Made by a program: the position numbers | Shown here: piece by piece, positions 12,001 through 64,000 of the stretch | How the letters are laid out: each line of letters begins with the position of its first letter | Numbering within the stretch: the stretch's first letter is position 1 | Assembly (NCBI GenBank): GCA_963772365.1 | Contig: CAVYXA010000005.1 | Coordinates: forward strand, 32,001 to 96,000 | DNA length: 64,000 bases | Direction of reading: 5' to 3' | From: an uncultured Verrucomicrobiae bacterium | Lineage (GTDB): Bacteria > Verrucomicrobiota > Verrucomicrobiia > Chthoniobacterales > UBA10450

Positions 12001-15000
12001 TCACTGAATTTTTTGAAACGAGCTGATTGTTTCTGGGCAGGAGAGCTATGCCGGGATAGGAAGCGATTACCCGAAATTCAAAAGCTCCAGCGGAGTTCAG
12101 CCCGGAGAGCCCGACAAAGGCAATATCGATCTTGTCCTCGGTCAACGCCTGGAGAAGATCTTTTGGAGGCATACCGAAAAGATTCACCGAGGTGGTGGGA
12201 AACTGCTGTTCAAACGCAGTGATGCTTGCCGGAAGCATTCGATGAAAAGGATTGGGGACGTAGCCAATTCGAATCGATCCCGATTGTTTTCCGACATCGC
12301 GAACGGATCGGATGACCTCGGTGCTGTAACCGAGAAGACGTTTGGCCCCAGCGAGGAGACACTCGCCTTCCCGAGTTAGTTTTACTCTTTTCTTTGAGCG
12401 ATCGAGAAGGCGCGCCCCAATCTCTTCTTCGAGATCTTTGATTTGTCGGGTGAGCGAAGGCTGCGCGATCCGGAGTTTCTCGGCTCCCTTGGTGAAGCTG
12501 AGTTCCTCGGCAACGGCGACAAAATAGCGAAGATGGCGCAGCTCCATTGATCTGGTCGAAGATCGGTTGGACATCTCTTCTACCACAGTGATTATGAAAA
12601 TGATAGGAAAAAAGTATCAGGATTTCTTATTCCGGGCTTGCAATCCCGTCGTATTTTTGCCTTGAACCACCACTGAGTTTATTCCGGGCAATTGGATTTT
12701 GGACTCATACGCCAAAAGCATGGGAAACAGCGCAAGGAAGTATTAGCTAATCCAACGTAAAATGTGGCACAATCCTCAGCTCACGCATGAGCACCGATCA
12801 AGCCCTTACTGAGGCATTGTTCCCCTCCGACCGGTTTTTCGTAACTTCCACCCTCCTTTCTCGGAGAACTTACCGGACACGCCTTTTAGAAATGAATGTC
12901 TTCGCAATAAGAGATCGATTCCCGGCCAGTAATAACTTGGCGGGTTTTTTATCCCGATTTGCACATCCTGGGTCCTCCCTGAAGAGGACCCAAAACATCT
13001 GATCCCCGGCCGCCGACCGGTTGGGTGATAACACAACCTGGCAAAGAGAAATGAAAGGTTTCGCGCGAAAAACGCGTCGATCGACCAAGGGCGGCAGCTT
13101 GCCTCGAAACGGCGGAACTGAAATGCGTACCCGAAGCGATTTGGGCTACAACGGCAGCCATAGTAACGCAAACCAAAGCGATGGCCCGGGCTACAGAAAC
13201 GGGCAGGACGGCGGGAATGGCAACGGCGCAGTGATGGCTTGCGACGAGATCGCGCAGCCGGTATTTCCATTGGCGGGTCGCGTTCGATTTGTTCCGCGGC
13301 GACTTTCTGCAGGCGTGCCGCGTTGGAAGCGGATCTTCGACATTACTTGCATCGCTCTCACATGCCCAGTGTGGGCTCCGCTTATGTTGATGGTCATGGC
13401 GTTAATCCGAGTTGCATCGCCCGGCCCCATCTTTTATCGGCAGGAGCGGGTCGGCTTTGGTGGCCGGCGCTTCATGCTCTTCAAATTCCGAACCATGCAC
13501 GTGGACGCAGGAACTGGAACGCATGAGGATTATGTTGCTGAATTGATCAAGAGCGGGCGGCCGATGGCTAAGCTCGATTCGGCCGGCGATTCCCGGCTCA
13601 TCCCAGGCGCCGGTTTTCTTCGCGCGTGTGGTTTGGACGAGTTGCCACAGATCTTCAACATTCTAAAAGGCGATATGAGCCTAGTGGGTCCACGCCCCTG
13701 TTTACCAAGGGAGTTTGTTCATTATGAGTCGTGGCAAAAACATCGTGTGGAAGCCCTGCCCGGACTGACTGGCTTATGGCAAGTGAGTGGCAAGAACGAG
13801 ACCACATTCAAGGAGATGATCGTTCTGGATCTGCAATATGTCCGCACTATGTCACTCTCGCTGGATCTCGAAATCATTTTGAAAACCATTCCCGCATTGA
13901 ACAAAGAAGTTTCACGGTGCTTAGGCCGTCTTTTTCGCAGACTGGCGGTCCGAATTTCAGTTCTCGGCCAGCCGCAACTGGCCGCGAATGTCGCGGCGCC
14001 AGATCGTAAATCATAGGTCATGAAAGCCCAGACAGGGCTTGGGTTAATCGGCTGCGGATATTGGGGACCGCTCCTCATCCGCAACTTTAAAGGGCTACCG
14101 CATTGCCGTCTCAAGACGGTTTGCGACCTGAGCGATACGCGCCTCGGGCATGTTAAGAAATTGTACCCGGACGTCGAATGCATTACCGAGACCGATCAGT
14201 TGTTCGCCGATCCCGCGATCGATGCCATCGTCGTCGCCACGCCGGTTCAATATCATTACTCGTTGGCGAAAGCCGCCCTGCTCGCTGGCAAGCACGTATT
14301 CATCGAGAAGCCGATGGCTTCCTCCTCAGACCAATGTGAAGAACTAATTCAGATCGCCAAGGCCGCGGGGCTGGTTCTGATGGTCGATCATACTTTTCTG
14401 TATTCCGCCGCTGTTCGTAAAATTGCCGAGATCATCGAAGCTGGTGACATCGGCGACATTCGCTACATCAATTCCCGCCGGCTCAACCTCGGTCTGTTTC
14501 AAAAGGACATCAACGTCGCTTGGGATCTCGCTCCCCACGACATCTCAATCATTCTTTACATTTTGGGTGAGTTCCCGGTGACCGTGAATTGCCAGGGAAA
14601 CGCGCATGTCACGCCCAAGGTGGAAGACGTAACCAACATGTCGCTTTCGTTCCGGCACAAACGTTTCGCCACAATTCAAAGCAGCTGGCTCGAGCCGCGC
14701 AAGGTTCGCGAAATGACCATTGTCGGCAGCCGCCGCATGATTGTTTACGACGACTTGCAGACACATGAAAAAATCAAGGTCTATGATGTGCGGGTCGAGC
14801 GTCCGCCGCACTACGACAGCTTTGCCGAATTCCAGTACTGGTACCACTACGGTGACAGTTACATTCCGCACATTCATCAGGAGGAACCTTTGAAGCTGGT
14901 TTGTCAGCACTTCATCGATTGCATCGAGAGCGGATCGAAGCCGATCACGAGCGGACGCGAAGGCCTGGAGATGGTGCGCATTCTAGAGGCTGCCTCCGCT

Positions 15001-63000: not shown

Positions 63001-64000
63001 ATGCTCATTGTATTCCACGCAGAATGTTTCGAAGCCCACGCCATGCCCCGTGTTAGCGATCGCCGACGCCCCGTAGCCCATCGAAGCGGGATTCAGAGTT
63101 GTAGAATACGCGTTGAATTCTCCTCCCAGACCAGAGTGATGGACCCCATAATCTAGAATCAGCGTGTTCGCGGAAACCTTTGGAAGAAATAAGGATATCG
63201 ACGCAAAGGCGATCACGGCGACAGAAAGGAGCTTCGCGGAGTAAGTCAGAGTTTTCATAGTTTCAAAAATAGATTGTAAGTGCCGAGGAATACAGCAAGC
63301 ATCGCGCCACGAATCGTTCTGCCGCTTCTTAACTAGATGCAGGTAGCTAATGTTGTGCGGCTTATAAATAAATCATCGTCTTTTTCAACAGACGGCAACT
63401 TTGTCGAAATCGTAAAACATTCCGACGATTTCGCGCCAGGAGGTGGTTTGCCACTTTGAGCACGCTGCCCGTCGAGCATTCAGAAATGGGATCGACGCTC
63501 GAGTGGCAGGCGCGATGCTGAGTTTTATTTCGGGACACCGCAGCGAGTTTGAAAACAAATAGGCTGACGTTTCGCAGAGAGGTCTTTACAATAGCTGAAA
63601 TGAAGTCGCATCTTCTTATCCTAACGATGGCTGCCGTTTTGATTGGCTGCCAGAGCATCAATCACTCCGTTATCACGGAAAAGCAGACGGCAGCTTCTGC
63701 GCCCGTGAAATTGAGGCCTGGCGACGTGATTAAACTGACATTTGCCGGCGCACCGGAATTGAACCAATCGCAGAAAATCAGGGGAGATGGGAAAATCAAT
63801 CTTCCGCTTGTCGGCGAGGTAACCGCGTCGGGCAAGACGGTTCCAGGATTTCAGGCTGAACTCGTCGGGTTATATAAATCGCAGCTCAAAGACAGCGAGG
63901 TCTTAGTGACACTGGAAAGCGGCGTCACGAATGTTGTGGTTTCCGGCTATGTGAGCAAGCCGGGCCGGCAGGTGTTCGACCGCCCGACGACCGTGTTCCA

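Follow-up and report, generated by a model that had tools for sequence, protein, structure and literature searches.

Gene content of the exopolysaccharide locus

The window, i.e. the whole stretch of 64,000 nucleotides that was analysed, contains a run of exopolysaccharide (EPS) reading frames with matching protein families, which extends from 13021 to 64000 and lies on the + strand throughout, as the genome-wide survey's note had described. The following features were assigned:

13021-14016, +, priming polyprenyl-phosphate sugar-phosphate transferase (Bac_transf 188 bits; TIGR03025 239 bits, below cut-off)
14020-15108, 23760-24770 and 37008-37841, +, GFO/MocA oxidoreductases (profile matches)
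15143-16258 and 26095-27264, +, DegT aminotransferases (profile matches)
16255-17382, +, Fem-1, FemAB/Acetyltransf_6 protein (Acetyltransf_6 78 bits, FemAB 40 bits, TIGR03019 166 bits, cut-off 260)
14020-17382, +, MocA, DegT and Fem-1 in tandem (profile matches)
17407-19743, +, Wzc-like chain-length determinant with tyrosine-kinase-like C-terminal part (Wzz 28.2 bits; TIGR03007 96 bits)
19795-27264, +, GT4, VimE-like deacetylase, MocA, hexapeptide N-acetyltransferase, Uma2 and DegT2 (profile matches)
28078-28677 and 28674-29108, +, sulfotransferase 1, split into two frames (Sulfotransfer_3)
30745-32136, +, Wzy-type polymerase (Wzy_C 47.9 bits, cut-off 31.7)
39235-39585 and 39723-40712, +, (alpha/alpha)6-barrel protein, split (single gene, 429-453 aa, in relatives; fold search with a relative's model: sugar epimerase/hydrolase-like barrel, TM 0.5-0.6)
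40718-41770 and 41715-42500, +, protein of about 585 aa, no known family, split (single gene, 581-588 aa, in relatives)
42624-44033 and 43756-44514, +, AsnB1, glutamine-dependent amidotransferase, split (GATase_7 and Asn_synthase; MCGI start)
44214-46653, +, polysaccharide deacetylase and GNAT protein (Polysacc_deac_1 65.8 bits; Acetyltransf_1 E 1.1e-5)
46754-47755, +, Fem-2, FemX fold (tandem GNAT), predicted aminoacyl-tRNA-dependent transferase (AlphaFold model)
47809-48810, +, sulfotransferase 2, ST_a (Sulfotransfer_3 78.9 bits)
48873-48964, +, anticodon-less tRNA-Ser-like RNA gene (ARAGORN call 'tRNA-???')
49090-50964, +, AsnB2, AsnB-like without N-terminal cysteine (Asn_synthase; MPGI start)
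50942-51757, +, probable sulfotransferase 3, Sulfotransfer_2-like (Sulfotransfer_1 E 0.049; motifs; atlas 0.97)
51779-52822, +, sulfotransferase 4, ST_c (Sulfotransfer_3 54 bits, Sulfotransfer_1 51 bits)
52761-54344, +, Wzx flippase (Polysacc_synt_3)
54371-55165, +, CysQ PAP phosphatase (TIGR01331 267 bits, cut-off 229)
55259-60303, +, GT9-like, GT4, DUF218, four-helix-bundle gene and NDP-N-acetylhexosamine dehydrogenase (profile matches)
58861-60303, +, the NDP-sugar dehydrogenase (nearest in PDB: UDP-HexNAc-uronic acid dehydrogenases)
61432-62406, +, exosortase, nearest XrtC type (PF09721 162 bits; TIGR04151 262 bits, cut-off 300)
63549-64000, running off the window, +, outer-membrane export protein Poly_export (60 bits)

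The locus continues for about 15 kb beyond the window with the regulators PrsR (596 bits, cut-off 503), PrsK (310, cut-off 300) and PrsT (340, cut-off 312) and with two proteins whose VPDSG-CTERM domains score 33 and 30 bits (cut-off 22), which identifies it as a PEP-CTERM/exosortase system. That it forms a complete Wzx/Wzy plus exosortase EPS system is supported. Among the sugar-modifying proteins, DegT2 is nearest in PDB to the 3-aminotransferases WbpE and QdtB, the hexapeptide acetyltransferase to sugar N-acetyltransferases including 3mqg, and the top match of the MocA proteins is UDP-GlcNAc 3-dehydrogenase, with a score under the cut-off. Neither the deacetylase nor the GNAT protein at 44214-46653 was found in any of 80 related loci. 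Matches to TIGR03019, TIGR03108, TIGR03007 and TIGR03027, which from their NCBIfam names we take to be the XrtA/PEP-CTERM-associated FemAB, AsnB, chain-length and export families, all remain under their cut-offs in the locus; such FemAB-, AsnB-type, chain-length and export proteins of XrtA/PEP-CTERM systems are already catalogued.

Sulfotransferases and AsnB-type proteins

Four sulfotransferase genes were found, three by Pfam Sulfotransfer_3 and one by motifs and the atlas only, and the locus likely encodes four PAPS sulfotransferases. In sulfotransferase 1, which has PRTGS and RDPR motifs, Sulfotransfer_3 profile positions 1-145 fall into the first ORF and 180-215 into the second. The nearest PDB chains of ST_a are CurM/OLS-type sulfotransferases, those of ST_c are 3rnl, heparan sulfate NDST1 and 3-OST. 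Sulfotransferase 3 contains SKTGGT and RNP, presumably sulfotransferase motifs, and its atlas score of 0.97 is to Sulfotransfer_2 clusters, with 25 of 30 matches in Sulfotransfer_2 sets. Of the "four or five" sulfotransferase genes counted in the survey's note four stand, one of them without Pfam support beyond E 0.049 and another, 28078-29108, split in two. The CysQ assignment was confirmed by a score above the TIGR01331 cut-off. Genome-wide, the 16 rows that match PF13469 fall at about 13 places, where 15 sulfotransferase-domain genes had been counted before; two APS kinase matches were found, and the single clear sulfatase was recovered as one strong match, besides two weak ones.

AsnB1 changes frame near 43765-43772, its two pieces reach 377 and 115 bits with TIGR03108, and its counterpart in a related locus is intact (632 aa). 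AsnB2 starts with MPGI (four relatives with MPGI or MTGF) and retains the Asn_synthase match with a TAGLDS stretch; it occurs in 64 of 80 Fem-2 loci and in 57 of 79 loci with the tRNA-like RNA. Since it lacks the glutaminase cysteine, AsnB2 is not a glutamine amidotransferase. Thus, of the two AsnB-type amidotransferases proposed before, AsnB1 has the cysteine, although split, and AsnB2 has to be dropped; the sequences support a single true glutamine amidotransferase in the locus.

The tRNA-Ser-like RNA and Fem-2

Two Fem-type proteins and an anticodon-less tRNA-Ser-like gene do lie in the locus. The RNA resembles the genome's own tRNA-Ser in the acceptor stem, D arm, long variable arm, G discriminator and T loop. 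However, its anticodon arm is replaced by a 7-bp stem with a GAAA tetraloop, and because of this capped helix in place of an anticodon loop it would be unable to decode. An alignment of 85 distinct relatives, itself fitted to the model, shows pairing in 97.8% of its cells and covariation at every one of the 7 pairs in the helix that stands in for the anticodon arm; in a set of five sequences, eight pairs are altered on both sides. The loops closing this helix are mostly GNRA, in some relatives UUCG. Pairs 1-3 of the acceptor stem are near-invariant, the T arm and the 3' acceptor strand being fixed by the search pattern in the 79 metagenome loci. With the G discriminator and the long variable arm, these pairs make up the identity set of seryl-tRNA synthetase (SerRS), of which the genome holds one. 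The 3' side is one base longer than in a normal tRNA, giving a T-stem bulge or an eighth, mismatched acceptor pair, and this might interfere with SerRS or the CCA-adding enzyme. The top Rfam match is tRNA-Sec (37.3 bits, under the threshold of 47), and promoter- or terminator-like sites around the gene do not exceed chance. The RNA was found in 3 of 40 genomes of relatives (four copies in total, three of them encoding CCA) and is missing from a genome of the same genus. An even draw of 150 genomes from the phylum gave no copy within the best 29 non-own matches, which rank ahead of 337 weaker ones and are all ordinary tRNA-Ser.

No Pfam family, FemAB included, matches Fem-2 above its cut-off, and TIGR03019 is reached with E 1.5e-4 only; 1256 relatives were found at E<=1e-5. 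Its AlphaFold model (pLDDT 86.7) is best matched in PDB by Sbb17/Sba18, FemX and aminoacyl-phosphatidylglycerol (MprF-type) synthases, with 9wqx at the top (E 1.7e-13) and 9wqy, 7z6a, 1ne9 and 4ii9 in the range from E 1e-13 to 1e-10, at a sequence identity of 11-15%. By these best matches, the model resembles aminoacyl-tRNA-dependent transferases most closely.

The RNA and Fem-2 also occur together elsewhere. In kin genomes, Fem-2 and AsnB2 lie within about 3 kb of the RNA in 5 of 5 copies. Among 79 metagenome loci chosen by the 3' half of the RNA alone, Fem-2 is present in 55, always on the same strand (55/55) and in 24 cases within 81 nt; where at least 2.5 kb were available on both sides, it is present in 21 of 23. 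The RNA is always intergenic on the coding strand, commonly 32-81 nt from Fem-2. Its place varies from before or after Fem-2 to behind a sulfotransferase or GT4 gene, with the order Fem-ST-tRNA-like in 13 of the 79 loci and ST_a directly upstream in 16. Sulfotransferase relatives were found in 24 of these loci and CysQ in five. Starting from Fem-2, 80 loci gave 21 RNA-model matches in 19 loci, all on the Fem-2 strand (about 18 of the tetraloop type, one ordinary tRNA-Ser and two degenerate). The remaining 61 have no match within 10 kb, so that relatives of Fem-2 mostly function without a local copy of the RNA. The widespread cassette reads AsnB1, Fem-2, (sulfotransferase), tRNA-like, AsnB2, (sulfotransferase), (CysQ), GT9, GT4.

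Proposed function and comparison with known systems

From gene content, protein folds, conserved RNA structure and synteny, which were observed directly, we infer the sugars, the sulfation of the glycan, the charging with serine and the transfer by Fem-2. In this reading, to which we assign a probability of roughly 0.55, the RNA of the PEP-CTERM/exosortase-linked Wzx/Wzy EPS locus would give serine to Fem-2. After priming by the first transferase, four or five glycosyltransferases would assemble a lipid-linked repeat unit, in which N-acetylhexosamine-derived sugars may be converted to uronic acids and receive a second amino group (dehydrogenase, MocA, DegT). Amino groups would be acetylated, freed by deacetylases or aminoacylated by the Fem-type enzymes, a carboxyl group amidated by AsnB1, and sulfate added by the four PAPS sulfotransferases, CysQ removing the by-product PAP. 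Wzx, Wzy, Wzz and the export protein would polymerise and export the chain; PrsK/PrsR would act as regulators and the exosortase would handle the VPDSG-CTERM proteins. Once excised from the operon transcript, the RNA would be serylated by the one housekeeping SerRS, an enzyme that reads no anticodon, and Fem-2 would then move the serine to an amino group of a glycan precursor.

It is unlikely that the element is instead a cis-acting RNA in the operon transcript and no amino acid donor. In that role it might serve as a cleavage signal for RNase P/RNase Z, splitting or stabilising the long mRNA, or as a decoy or sensor coupling EPS synthesis to SerRS activity or the supply of serine, and its intergenic position on the coding strand, often 32-81 nt from Fem-2, the promoter- and terminator-like sites not beyond chance and its variable place in the gene order agree with this. 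However, a mere processing signal would need neither near-invariant acceptor pairs, G discriminator and long variable arm nor the tracking of one family with an aminoacyl-tRNA-transferase fold, and three of four relatives' copies encode CCA. By analogy with the conversion of amino acids on tRNA, the RNA might also be a carrier on which serine is modified before delivery, which appears quite improbable; the serine might be O-sulfated by the sulfotransferase next to the RNA, or altered through an adenylation-dependent chemistry of AsnB2. Known enzyme families of tRNA-dependent conversion were not seen and 55 of the 79 RNA loci lack a sulfotransferase, against the 16 with ST_a immediately 5' of the RNA. 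By sequence, ST_a matches just two PDB entries, 4gox (E 1.1e-10) and the CurM sulfotransferase (E 7e-7), both acting on carrier-bound beta-hydroxyacyl groups, but the likeness to CurM-type enzymes is limited to residues 148-283 (44 bits). The tRNA-Sec match and the frequent presence of AsnB2, with its Asn_synthase match but no glutaminase cysteine, would also suit a carrier.

As for the polymer, sulfotransferases acting on lipids, VPDSG-CTERM proteins or small molecules would leave an ordinary acidic amino-sugar EPS. This is unlikely: the four sulfotransferases and CysQ share their strand with the glycosyltransferase, Wzx and Wzy genes between which they stand, contigs that are unrelated show this pairing again, ST_c resembles carbohydrate sulfotransferases including heparan sulfate N- and 3-O-types, and similar clusters are reported to give sulfated EPS in Synechocystis (PMC8205485). 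On the other side, the roughly 13 genomic PF13469 places lie outside clear context, and rhizobial and mycobacterial sulfotransferases are described as acting on lipo-oligosaccharides (PMC8205485). Very doubtful is a decaying locus with real pseudogenes and no polymer made, even though at least six genes lie in two frames: in the window at least four (sulfotransferase 1, the barrel protein, AsnB1 and the 585-aa protein, where the survey's note had rightly named two split genes but missed the barrel and 585-aa genes), and beyond it PrsK and PrsT. The frame changes are away from long homopolymers, but in every split gene both parts are still 60-80% identical to relatives. Moreover, since the essential valS is split as well (and another valS-like stretch is broken into at least four), the splits are probably assembly indels; with rpoB, rpoC, two dnaE-family genes and secA open, such errors exist but are patchy.

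Sulfated glycosaminoglycan-like exopolymers and a cluster with sulfotransferase, GT2/GT4 and sugar aminotransferase genes are reported from Pontiella of the same phylum (PMC7356697), and the xss cluster for synechan in Synechocystis is a genetically tested Wzx/Wzy cluster with sulfotransferase genes (PMC8205485). These precede the bacterial sulfated slime that had been put forward as new. The locus described here differs by four sulfotransferases with CysQ, an amidotransferase, Fem-type genes and the tRNA-like gene; the accessible text on both clusters describes no aminoacyl-transfer module (PMC8205485, PMC7356697). PEP-CTERM/EpsH systems, in which exosortase, PrsK/PrsR/PrsT and sorting-signal proteins accompany EPS genes, share the chain-length determinant, sugar transferase, deacetylase and export protein (PMC1569441). 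In contrast to their XrtA type, the present exosortase comes closest to XrtC, with VPDSG-CTERM as its signal. The system as described does not include sulfotransferases, CysQ or the tRNA-like gene, and neither sulfotransferase nor FemAB is mentioned in the available portion of that paper (PMC1569441).

With respect to the RNA, allo-tRNAs from Acidobacteria and soil metagenomes are likewise irregular, tRNA-Ser/Sec-like SerRS-type RNAs with unusual stems (PMC5389517). However, the part of that study at hand treats them as suppressors in translation, uses "tetraloop" of the D arm, and draws no tie to Fem-type genes or polysaccharide loci (PMC5389517). Natural-product transferases (Sbb17/Sba18, VlmA, PacB, DhpH) and Weissella viridescens FemX share the fold of Fem-2 at the low identity given above; VlmA uses seryl-tRNA, and the accessible sections of the review mention no dedicated tRNA or tRNA-like RNA for such transferases (PMC12945691). 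In Staphylococcus aureus, a tRNA-Gly isoacceptor kept from translation feeds FemABX-type transferases of peptidoglycan, which compares with the tie of a tRNA-derived RNA to a FemX-fold protein found here (PMC4810233). In the present locus the RNA gene stands within the biosynthetic operon, the amino acid is presumably serine instead of glycine and the acceptor presumably an EPS sugar instead of a peptidoglycan peptide. Staphylococcal tRNAs feeding Fem proteins keep a normal anticodon loop, whereas here a capped helix takes its place.

A sulfated, amidated and aminoacylated amino-sugar polymer, as the survey's note had proposed, is a fair reading of the gene content, and the large cluster probably makes a sulfated amino-sugar slime. 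The new part of the locus is the tRNA-Ser-like gene at 48873-48964, a side detail in that note and the best-supported new feature; most likely, its RNA does not decode but carries serine and donates it in the aminoacylation of a glycan.

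The exopolysaccharide locus and its export machinery

From position 13021 to the end of the window the + strand carries a near-unbroken run of about 45 ORFs. The genome-wide survey's note had described this run as an exopolysaccharide locus, and the start that it had set is borne out since the genes upstream of 13021 lie on the opposite strand. The end has to be moved, because the system continues in the contig behind the window (continuation L247) and truly ends about 15 kb beyond it. Pfam and NCBIfam scans detected the complete set of a Wzx/Wzy-dependent pathway, consisting of priming transferase, Wzx, Wzy, chain-length determinant and export protein.

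Core genes of the exopolysaccharide locus (window positions, strand, gene)
13021-14016, +, priming transferase (Bac_transf, 188 bits, above Pfam cut-off)
17407-19743, +, chain-length determinant with a kinase-like tail (Wzz, 28.2 bits, above Pfam cut-off)
19795-22047, +, GT4 glycosyltransferase
30745-32136, +, Wzy polymerase (Wzy_C, 47.9 bits, above Pfam cut-off)
38273-39232, +, GT2 glycosyltransferase
52761-54344, +, Wzx flippase (Polysacc_synt_3, 67 bits, above Pfam cut-off)
55259-56251, +, GT9-like glycosyltransferase
56248-57561, +, GT4 glycosyltransferase
61432-62406, +, exosortase (PF09721, 162 bits)
from 63549, +, outer-membrane export protein (Poly_export, 60 bits, above Pfam cut-off)

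Since the score of the best exosortase subtype, XrtC, stays below its cut-off (262 vs 300 bits), the exosortase is not assigned to a subtype. Past the window the rest of the export gene is followed by PrsK (310 bits, cut-off 300), PrsR (596, cut-off 503), PrsT (340, cut-off 312) and an RfaH-like factor, and two small VPDSG-CTERM proteins (TIGR03778, 33 and 29.9 bits, cut-off 22) are encoded just downstream of the window. The elements of a PEP-CTERM/exosortase system are therefore present: an exosortase, proteins with a sorting signal and PrsK/PrsR/PrsT. This system is well described (excerpt of PMC1569441), and families of the FemAB and AsnB type are listed as PEP-CTERM-associated in NCBIfam already.

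In comparison to intact relatives four genes of the window lie in two frames, namely the sulfotransferase 28078-29108, the genes at 39235-40712 and 40718-42500, and AsnB1 (an AsnB-type gene, 42624-44514) near 43765-43772. PrsK and PrsT past the window each consist of two overlapping ORFs (L247 3858-5971 and 7463-10748). Such splits had been put down to assembly indels, and the alternative would be a decay of the locus itself. The sites of frame change are not long homopolymers. As a control for assembly errors, long housekeeping genes were checked for open frames over the full profile: rpoB, rpoC, secA and two genes of the dnaE family are open throughout; valS is broken into two frames, and another valS-like stretch into at least four pieces (C3:627813-630360 and C3:829584-831994). 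A broken valS, an essential gene, argues for patchy indel errors of the assembly rather than decay, in line with the survey, without being a proof.

Some further elements lie within the run. One gene for a Uma2-family endonuclease and two for four-helix-bundle proteins (of the kind named '23S rRNA intervening sequence protein') are on the same strand (25434-26018; 36551-36967; 58276-58824). Between the first DegT gene and Fem-1, a FemAB-family gene, a 64-nt near-perfect palindrome is located (16278-16341). Its 24-nt arm has 15 exact copies in the genome and its 16-nt core 22, with another copy of the arm near 24825; this spread over the genome marks it as a REP-like dispersed repeat. The Rfam matches 'mir-1537' and 'mir-504' at this site reflect the hairpin of the repeat.

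Predicted sugar units and sulfation, and the AsnB-type proteins

The sugar-modifying set comprises three MocA oxidoreductases, two DegT aminotransferases, a hexapeptide acetyltransferase, an epimerase/dehydratase, an NDP-sugar dehydrogenase and two deacetylase-like proteins. In the PDB the second DegT protein is closest to glutamine--scyllo-inositol transaminase and to the 3-aminotransferases QdtB and WbpE (E 1e-81 to 1e-102), the acetyltransferase to sugar N-acetyltransferases including the lipopolysaccharide enzyme 3mqg, and the dehydrogenase to UDP-N-acetylhexosaminuronic acid dehydrogenases. The latter (58861-60303) has about 50 additional residues within its N-terminal domain, the profile covering 1-112 and resuming at about 163. 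UDP-GlcNAc 3-dehydrogenase is the best match of the MocA proteins, below the cut-off, and ORF 22095-23732 weakly matches a UDP-2,3-diacetamido-2,3-dideoxyglucuronate deacetylase (E 3.7e-13). A route to diamino-hexuronic acid sugars via WbpA/B/E/D is known. By analogy to this route, the enzyme set would fit 2,3-diamino-2,3-dideoxyhexuronic acid units, which would present a carboxyl group to AsnB1 and amino groups to acetyl, aminoacyl or sulfate residues. MocA, DegT and Fem-1 are consecutive at 14020-17382; the position of Fem-1, where the classical route has its acetyltransferase, is suggestive. Judged from gene content, the deacetylases could expose amines for N-sulfation.

Three sulfotransferase genes score above the Pfam cut-offs (28078-29108; 47809-48810, called ST_a; 51779-52822, called ST_c). 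In all three, two motifs can be seen by eye which we take to be PAPS-binding. The first one is in two frames, with profile positions 1-145 and 180-215 in successive ORFs, and is flanked by an NADPH-dependent FMN reductase and a FAD amine-oxidase-like protein (27454-28068 and 29105-30652). ORF 50942-51757 is probably a fourth sulfotransferase: its Pfam match is not significant (E 0.049), its sequence contains SKTGGT close to the start and, farther along, RNP, and 25 of its 30 nearest atlas clusters are Sulfotransfer_2 sets (score 0.97). Of the 'four or five' genes counted before, three are thus firm and a fourth is probable. The identity of CysQ holds, as it passes the equivalog cut-off (267 vs 229 bits), and the earlier genome-wide counts agree with 16 rows of PF13469 at about 13 places, two APS kinase matches (one inside a 645-aa frame) and one strong and two weak sulfatase matches.

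Both AsnB-type genes had been taken for amidotransferases. This stands for AsnB1, which starts with MCGI, has the N-terminal catalytic cysteine and reaches 372 bits with TIGR01536 (cut-off 267). It does not stand for AsnB2 (49090-50964), which starts with MPGI, as its four relatives start with MPGI or MTGF. A protein with such a start has no N-terminal catalytic cysteine, the nucleophile of the glutamine-hydrolysing enzymes, so AsnB2 resembles AsnB by fold family alone, and 'AsnB-like, putatively adenylating enzyme' is the better name for it.

In the PDB, ST_c is nearest to a bacterial sulfotransferase, followed by heparan sulfate N-sulfotransferase (NDST1) and 3-O-sulfotransferases (3-OST). 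The barrel protein, one of two cassette genes at 39235-42500, was considered as a glucuronyl C5-epimerase; it matches C5-epim_C with E 0.088 only, and the folds closest to it are those of generic (alpha/alpha)6 enzymes (best cellobiose 2-epimerases, GH88/GH105 and GH76; TM 0.5-0.6). The term 'glycosaminoglycan-like' is an analogy for the polymer and no assignment to heparan/chondroitin-type biosynthesis. Sulfated exopolymers and sulfotransferase-bearing clusters are already in print for Pontiella of the same phylum (excerpt of PMC7356697) and for Synechocystis (excerpt of PMC8205485). Taken alone, the sulfated exopolysaccharide would be a further example beside cyanobacteria and Pontiella.

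An RNA related to tRNA-Ser lacking the anticodon arm

Between ST_a and AsnB2, ARAGORN reports one odd gene at 48873-48964 (+) as 'tRNA-???' with a four-base 'anticodon'. An alignment with the class II members of the genome's 48 tRNAs, including four tRNA-Ser genes, shows that it shares with tRNA-Ser the acceptor stem, the D arm, the long variable arm, the G discriminator and the T loop. The anticodon arm is replaced by a 7-bp helix closed by GAAA, and a seven-base anticodon loop with a serine anticodon is absent from the gene. Due to this capped stem the RNA is not a decoding tRNA. Rfam has no family which accounts for it (best tRNA-Sec, 37.3 bits, threshold 47, with one weaker match from its clan behind it), and a promoter/terminator scan around the gene gave nothing above chance. 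On the 3' side there is one extra base, possibly a T-stem bulge, which varies in one relative; one may speculate that it weakens the binding of EF-Tu. Directly 3' of the gene and before AsnB2, four CTGAAA repeats are found (48974-49005).

BLAST among 40 relatives detected full-length copies in three genomes, four in total, all with GCAA loops and compensatory changes in the stems; a same-genus genome among these relatives has no copy. In the five sequences of the window and its kin 99.3% of the alignment cells pair and eight pairs change on both sides. A covariance model was built from these five sequences. In an even sample of 150 genomes from the phylum, the best 29 matches outside the own copies, with 337 weaker ones below, are ordinary tRNA-Ser(GCU) with at most 86 bits, compared to 113 bits for the gene of the window; the RNA is thus rare within this sample.

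The distribution was followed from two sides. The nearby gene Fem-2 (46754-47755) has relatives encoded in 225 stretches of a species-representative genome set, of which 80 from many phyla were kept. The RNA model gave 21 matches in 19 of these loci, always on the strand of the gene: about 18 with a capped helix, one normal tRNA-Ser(GGA) and two degenerate ones. In the other 61 no match was detected within 10 kb. Independently of the protein, metagenome contigs were scanned with the 3' 28 bases of the RNA only, which yielded at least 121 stretches, and 79 loci were fetched. A Fem-2 relative occurs in 55 of them, on the same strand in all 55 and within 81 nt in 24; where at least 2.5 kb are available on both sides, the proportion is 21 of 23. 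AsnB2 relatives are present in 57 of the 79, and each of the five copies in kin genomes lies within about 3 kb of relatives of both Fem-2 and AsnB2.

In the 79 loci the cassette, with every gene on a single strand, has a consistent order: (585-aa protein), barrel protein, AsnB1, Fem-2, (ST_a), tRNA-like gene, AsnB2, (ST_c or ST_b), (CysQ), GT9, GT4. The order Fem-2, ST_a, RNA of the window recurs in 13 loci. At least one sulfotransferase relative was found in 24 and CysQ in five of the 79, many of which span no more than 1-4 kb. In none of the 80 genome loci were the window's deacetylase and GNAT genes (44214-46653) detected. Some loci (L048, L051, L136, L138, L151, L177 and L191) contain two tRNA-like copies, the second often with a lower score (70-96 bits), and one two-copy locus has also two Fem-2 genes.

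A tRNA pseudogene and the remnant of an integration site were rejected as explanations of the gene, given its constant strand and neighbour and the covariation. From 101 aligned matches 85 distinct sequences were obtained; in this alignment, which was fitted to the model and in which the search pattern fixed the T arm and the 3' acceptor strand of the 79 metagenome loci, 97.8% of the cells pair and two-sided changes are seen in 18 of the 29 pairs. Among them are 7/7 pairs of the helix that stands in for the anticodon arm and 7/7 of the variable arm; slid controls reached at most eight pairs. The loops in the metagenome loci are GCAA (42), GAAA (six to eight), GUAA (three), ACAA (two) and UUCG (at least five), and some helices are shorter. 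In L197, L198, L163, L178, L181 and L177 the GNRA-capped 7-bp stem gives way to one with a UUCG loop or to a much shorter helix. Thus, the conserved feature is a closed hairpin and no specific loop sequence. Acceptor pairs 1-3 are nearly invariant in the 85 sequences; the acceptor pairs, the G discriminator and the long variable arm are known as identity elements for seryl-tRNA synthetase (SerRS).

The FemX-fold neighbour and a possible serine carrier

Fem-2 has no convincing match among family sequence profiles (Pfam FemAB E 0.18; TIGR03019 E 1.5e-4). Acetyltransf_6 matches three of five Fem-2 relatives (best E 5.7e-7), and a PDB sequence-profile search with the five gave weak GNAT matches only (best E 0.008). 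A structure model from 27 sequences (pLDDT 86.7) was compared by Foldseek. The top folds are the aminoacyl-tRNA-dependent peptide synthases Sbb17/Sba18 (E 1.7e-13, TM up to 0.66), followed by FemX of Weissella (E about 1e-10, TM 0.51-0.57) and aminoacyl-phosphatidylglycerol synthase domains, all of them families which take the amino acid from a charged tRNA. According to the model, Fem-2 shares the tandem GNAT fold of FemX. It belongs to a large family without a name, with 1256 proteins at E<=1e-5, mostly 'hypothetical'. The synteny with the tRNA-like gene is the one ground on which aminoacyl-tRNA is predicted as the donor of Fem-2.

SerRS reads the long arm and the acceptor end of its tRNA and not the anticodon, and one SerRS is encoded in the genome. 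An RNA which keeps these two parts would still be chargeable by SerRS, and since a stable capped helix occupies the site of the anticodon loop, it would be unable to decode. As a private serine carrier beside a FemX-fold enzyme, it could feed a biosynthetic aminoacylation without draining translation. We therefore propose, with a probability of roughly 40%, that the anticodon-less tRNA-Ser derivatives in exopolysaccharide operons of several soil phyla form a new class of bacterial RNAs: private aminoacyl carriers, charged by SerRS and invisible to the ribosome, from which the FemX-fold enzyme would produce an aminoacylated sulfated glycan. The serine might first be modified on the carrier by the adjacent sulfotransferase or AsnB2. 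Such a carrier would echo the specialised tRNA-Gly of Staphylococcus aureus (excerpt of PMC4810233). A limited literature collection contained no description of such an RNA, and it is not mentioned in the excerpts of a 2026 review of aminoacyl-tRNA-dependent enzymes (PMC12945691) and of a paper on irregular SerRS-type tRNAs (PMC5389517).

If this proposal is true, the RNA would be a natural molecule in which the half of a tRNA needed for charging is retained and the half needed for decoding has been lost. It would be a direct answer to the competition between translation and tRNA-dependent biosynthesis, as well as a ready-made orthogonal carrier for synthetic biology. Furthermore, exopolysaccharides would join cell walls, lipids and antibiotics as targets of tRNA-dependent aminoacylation. 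As the cassette is common in soil metagenomes, judged from the number of stretches and of Fem-2 relatives, it could mark a widespread class of chemically unknown slimes that bear sulfate and amino acids and matter for the aggregation of soil and the binding of metals.
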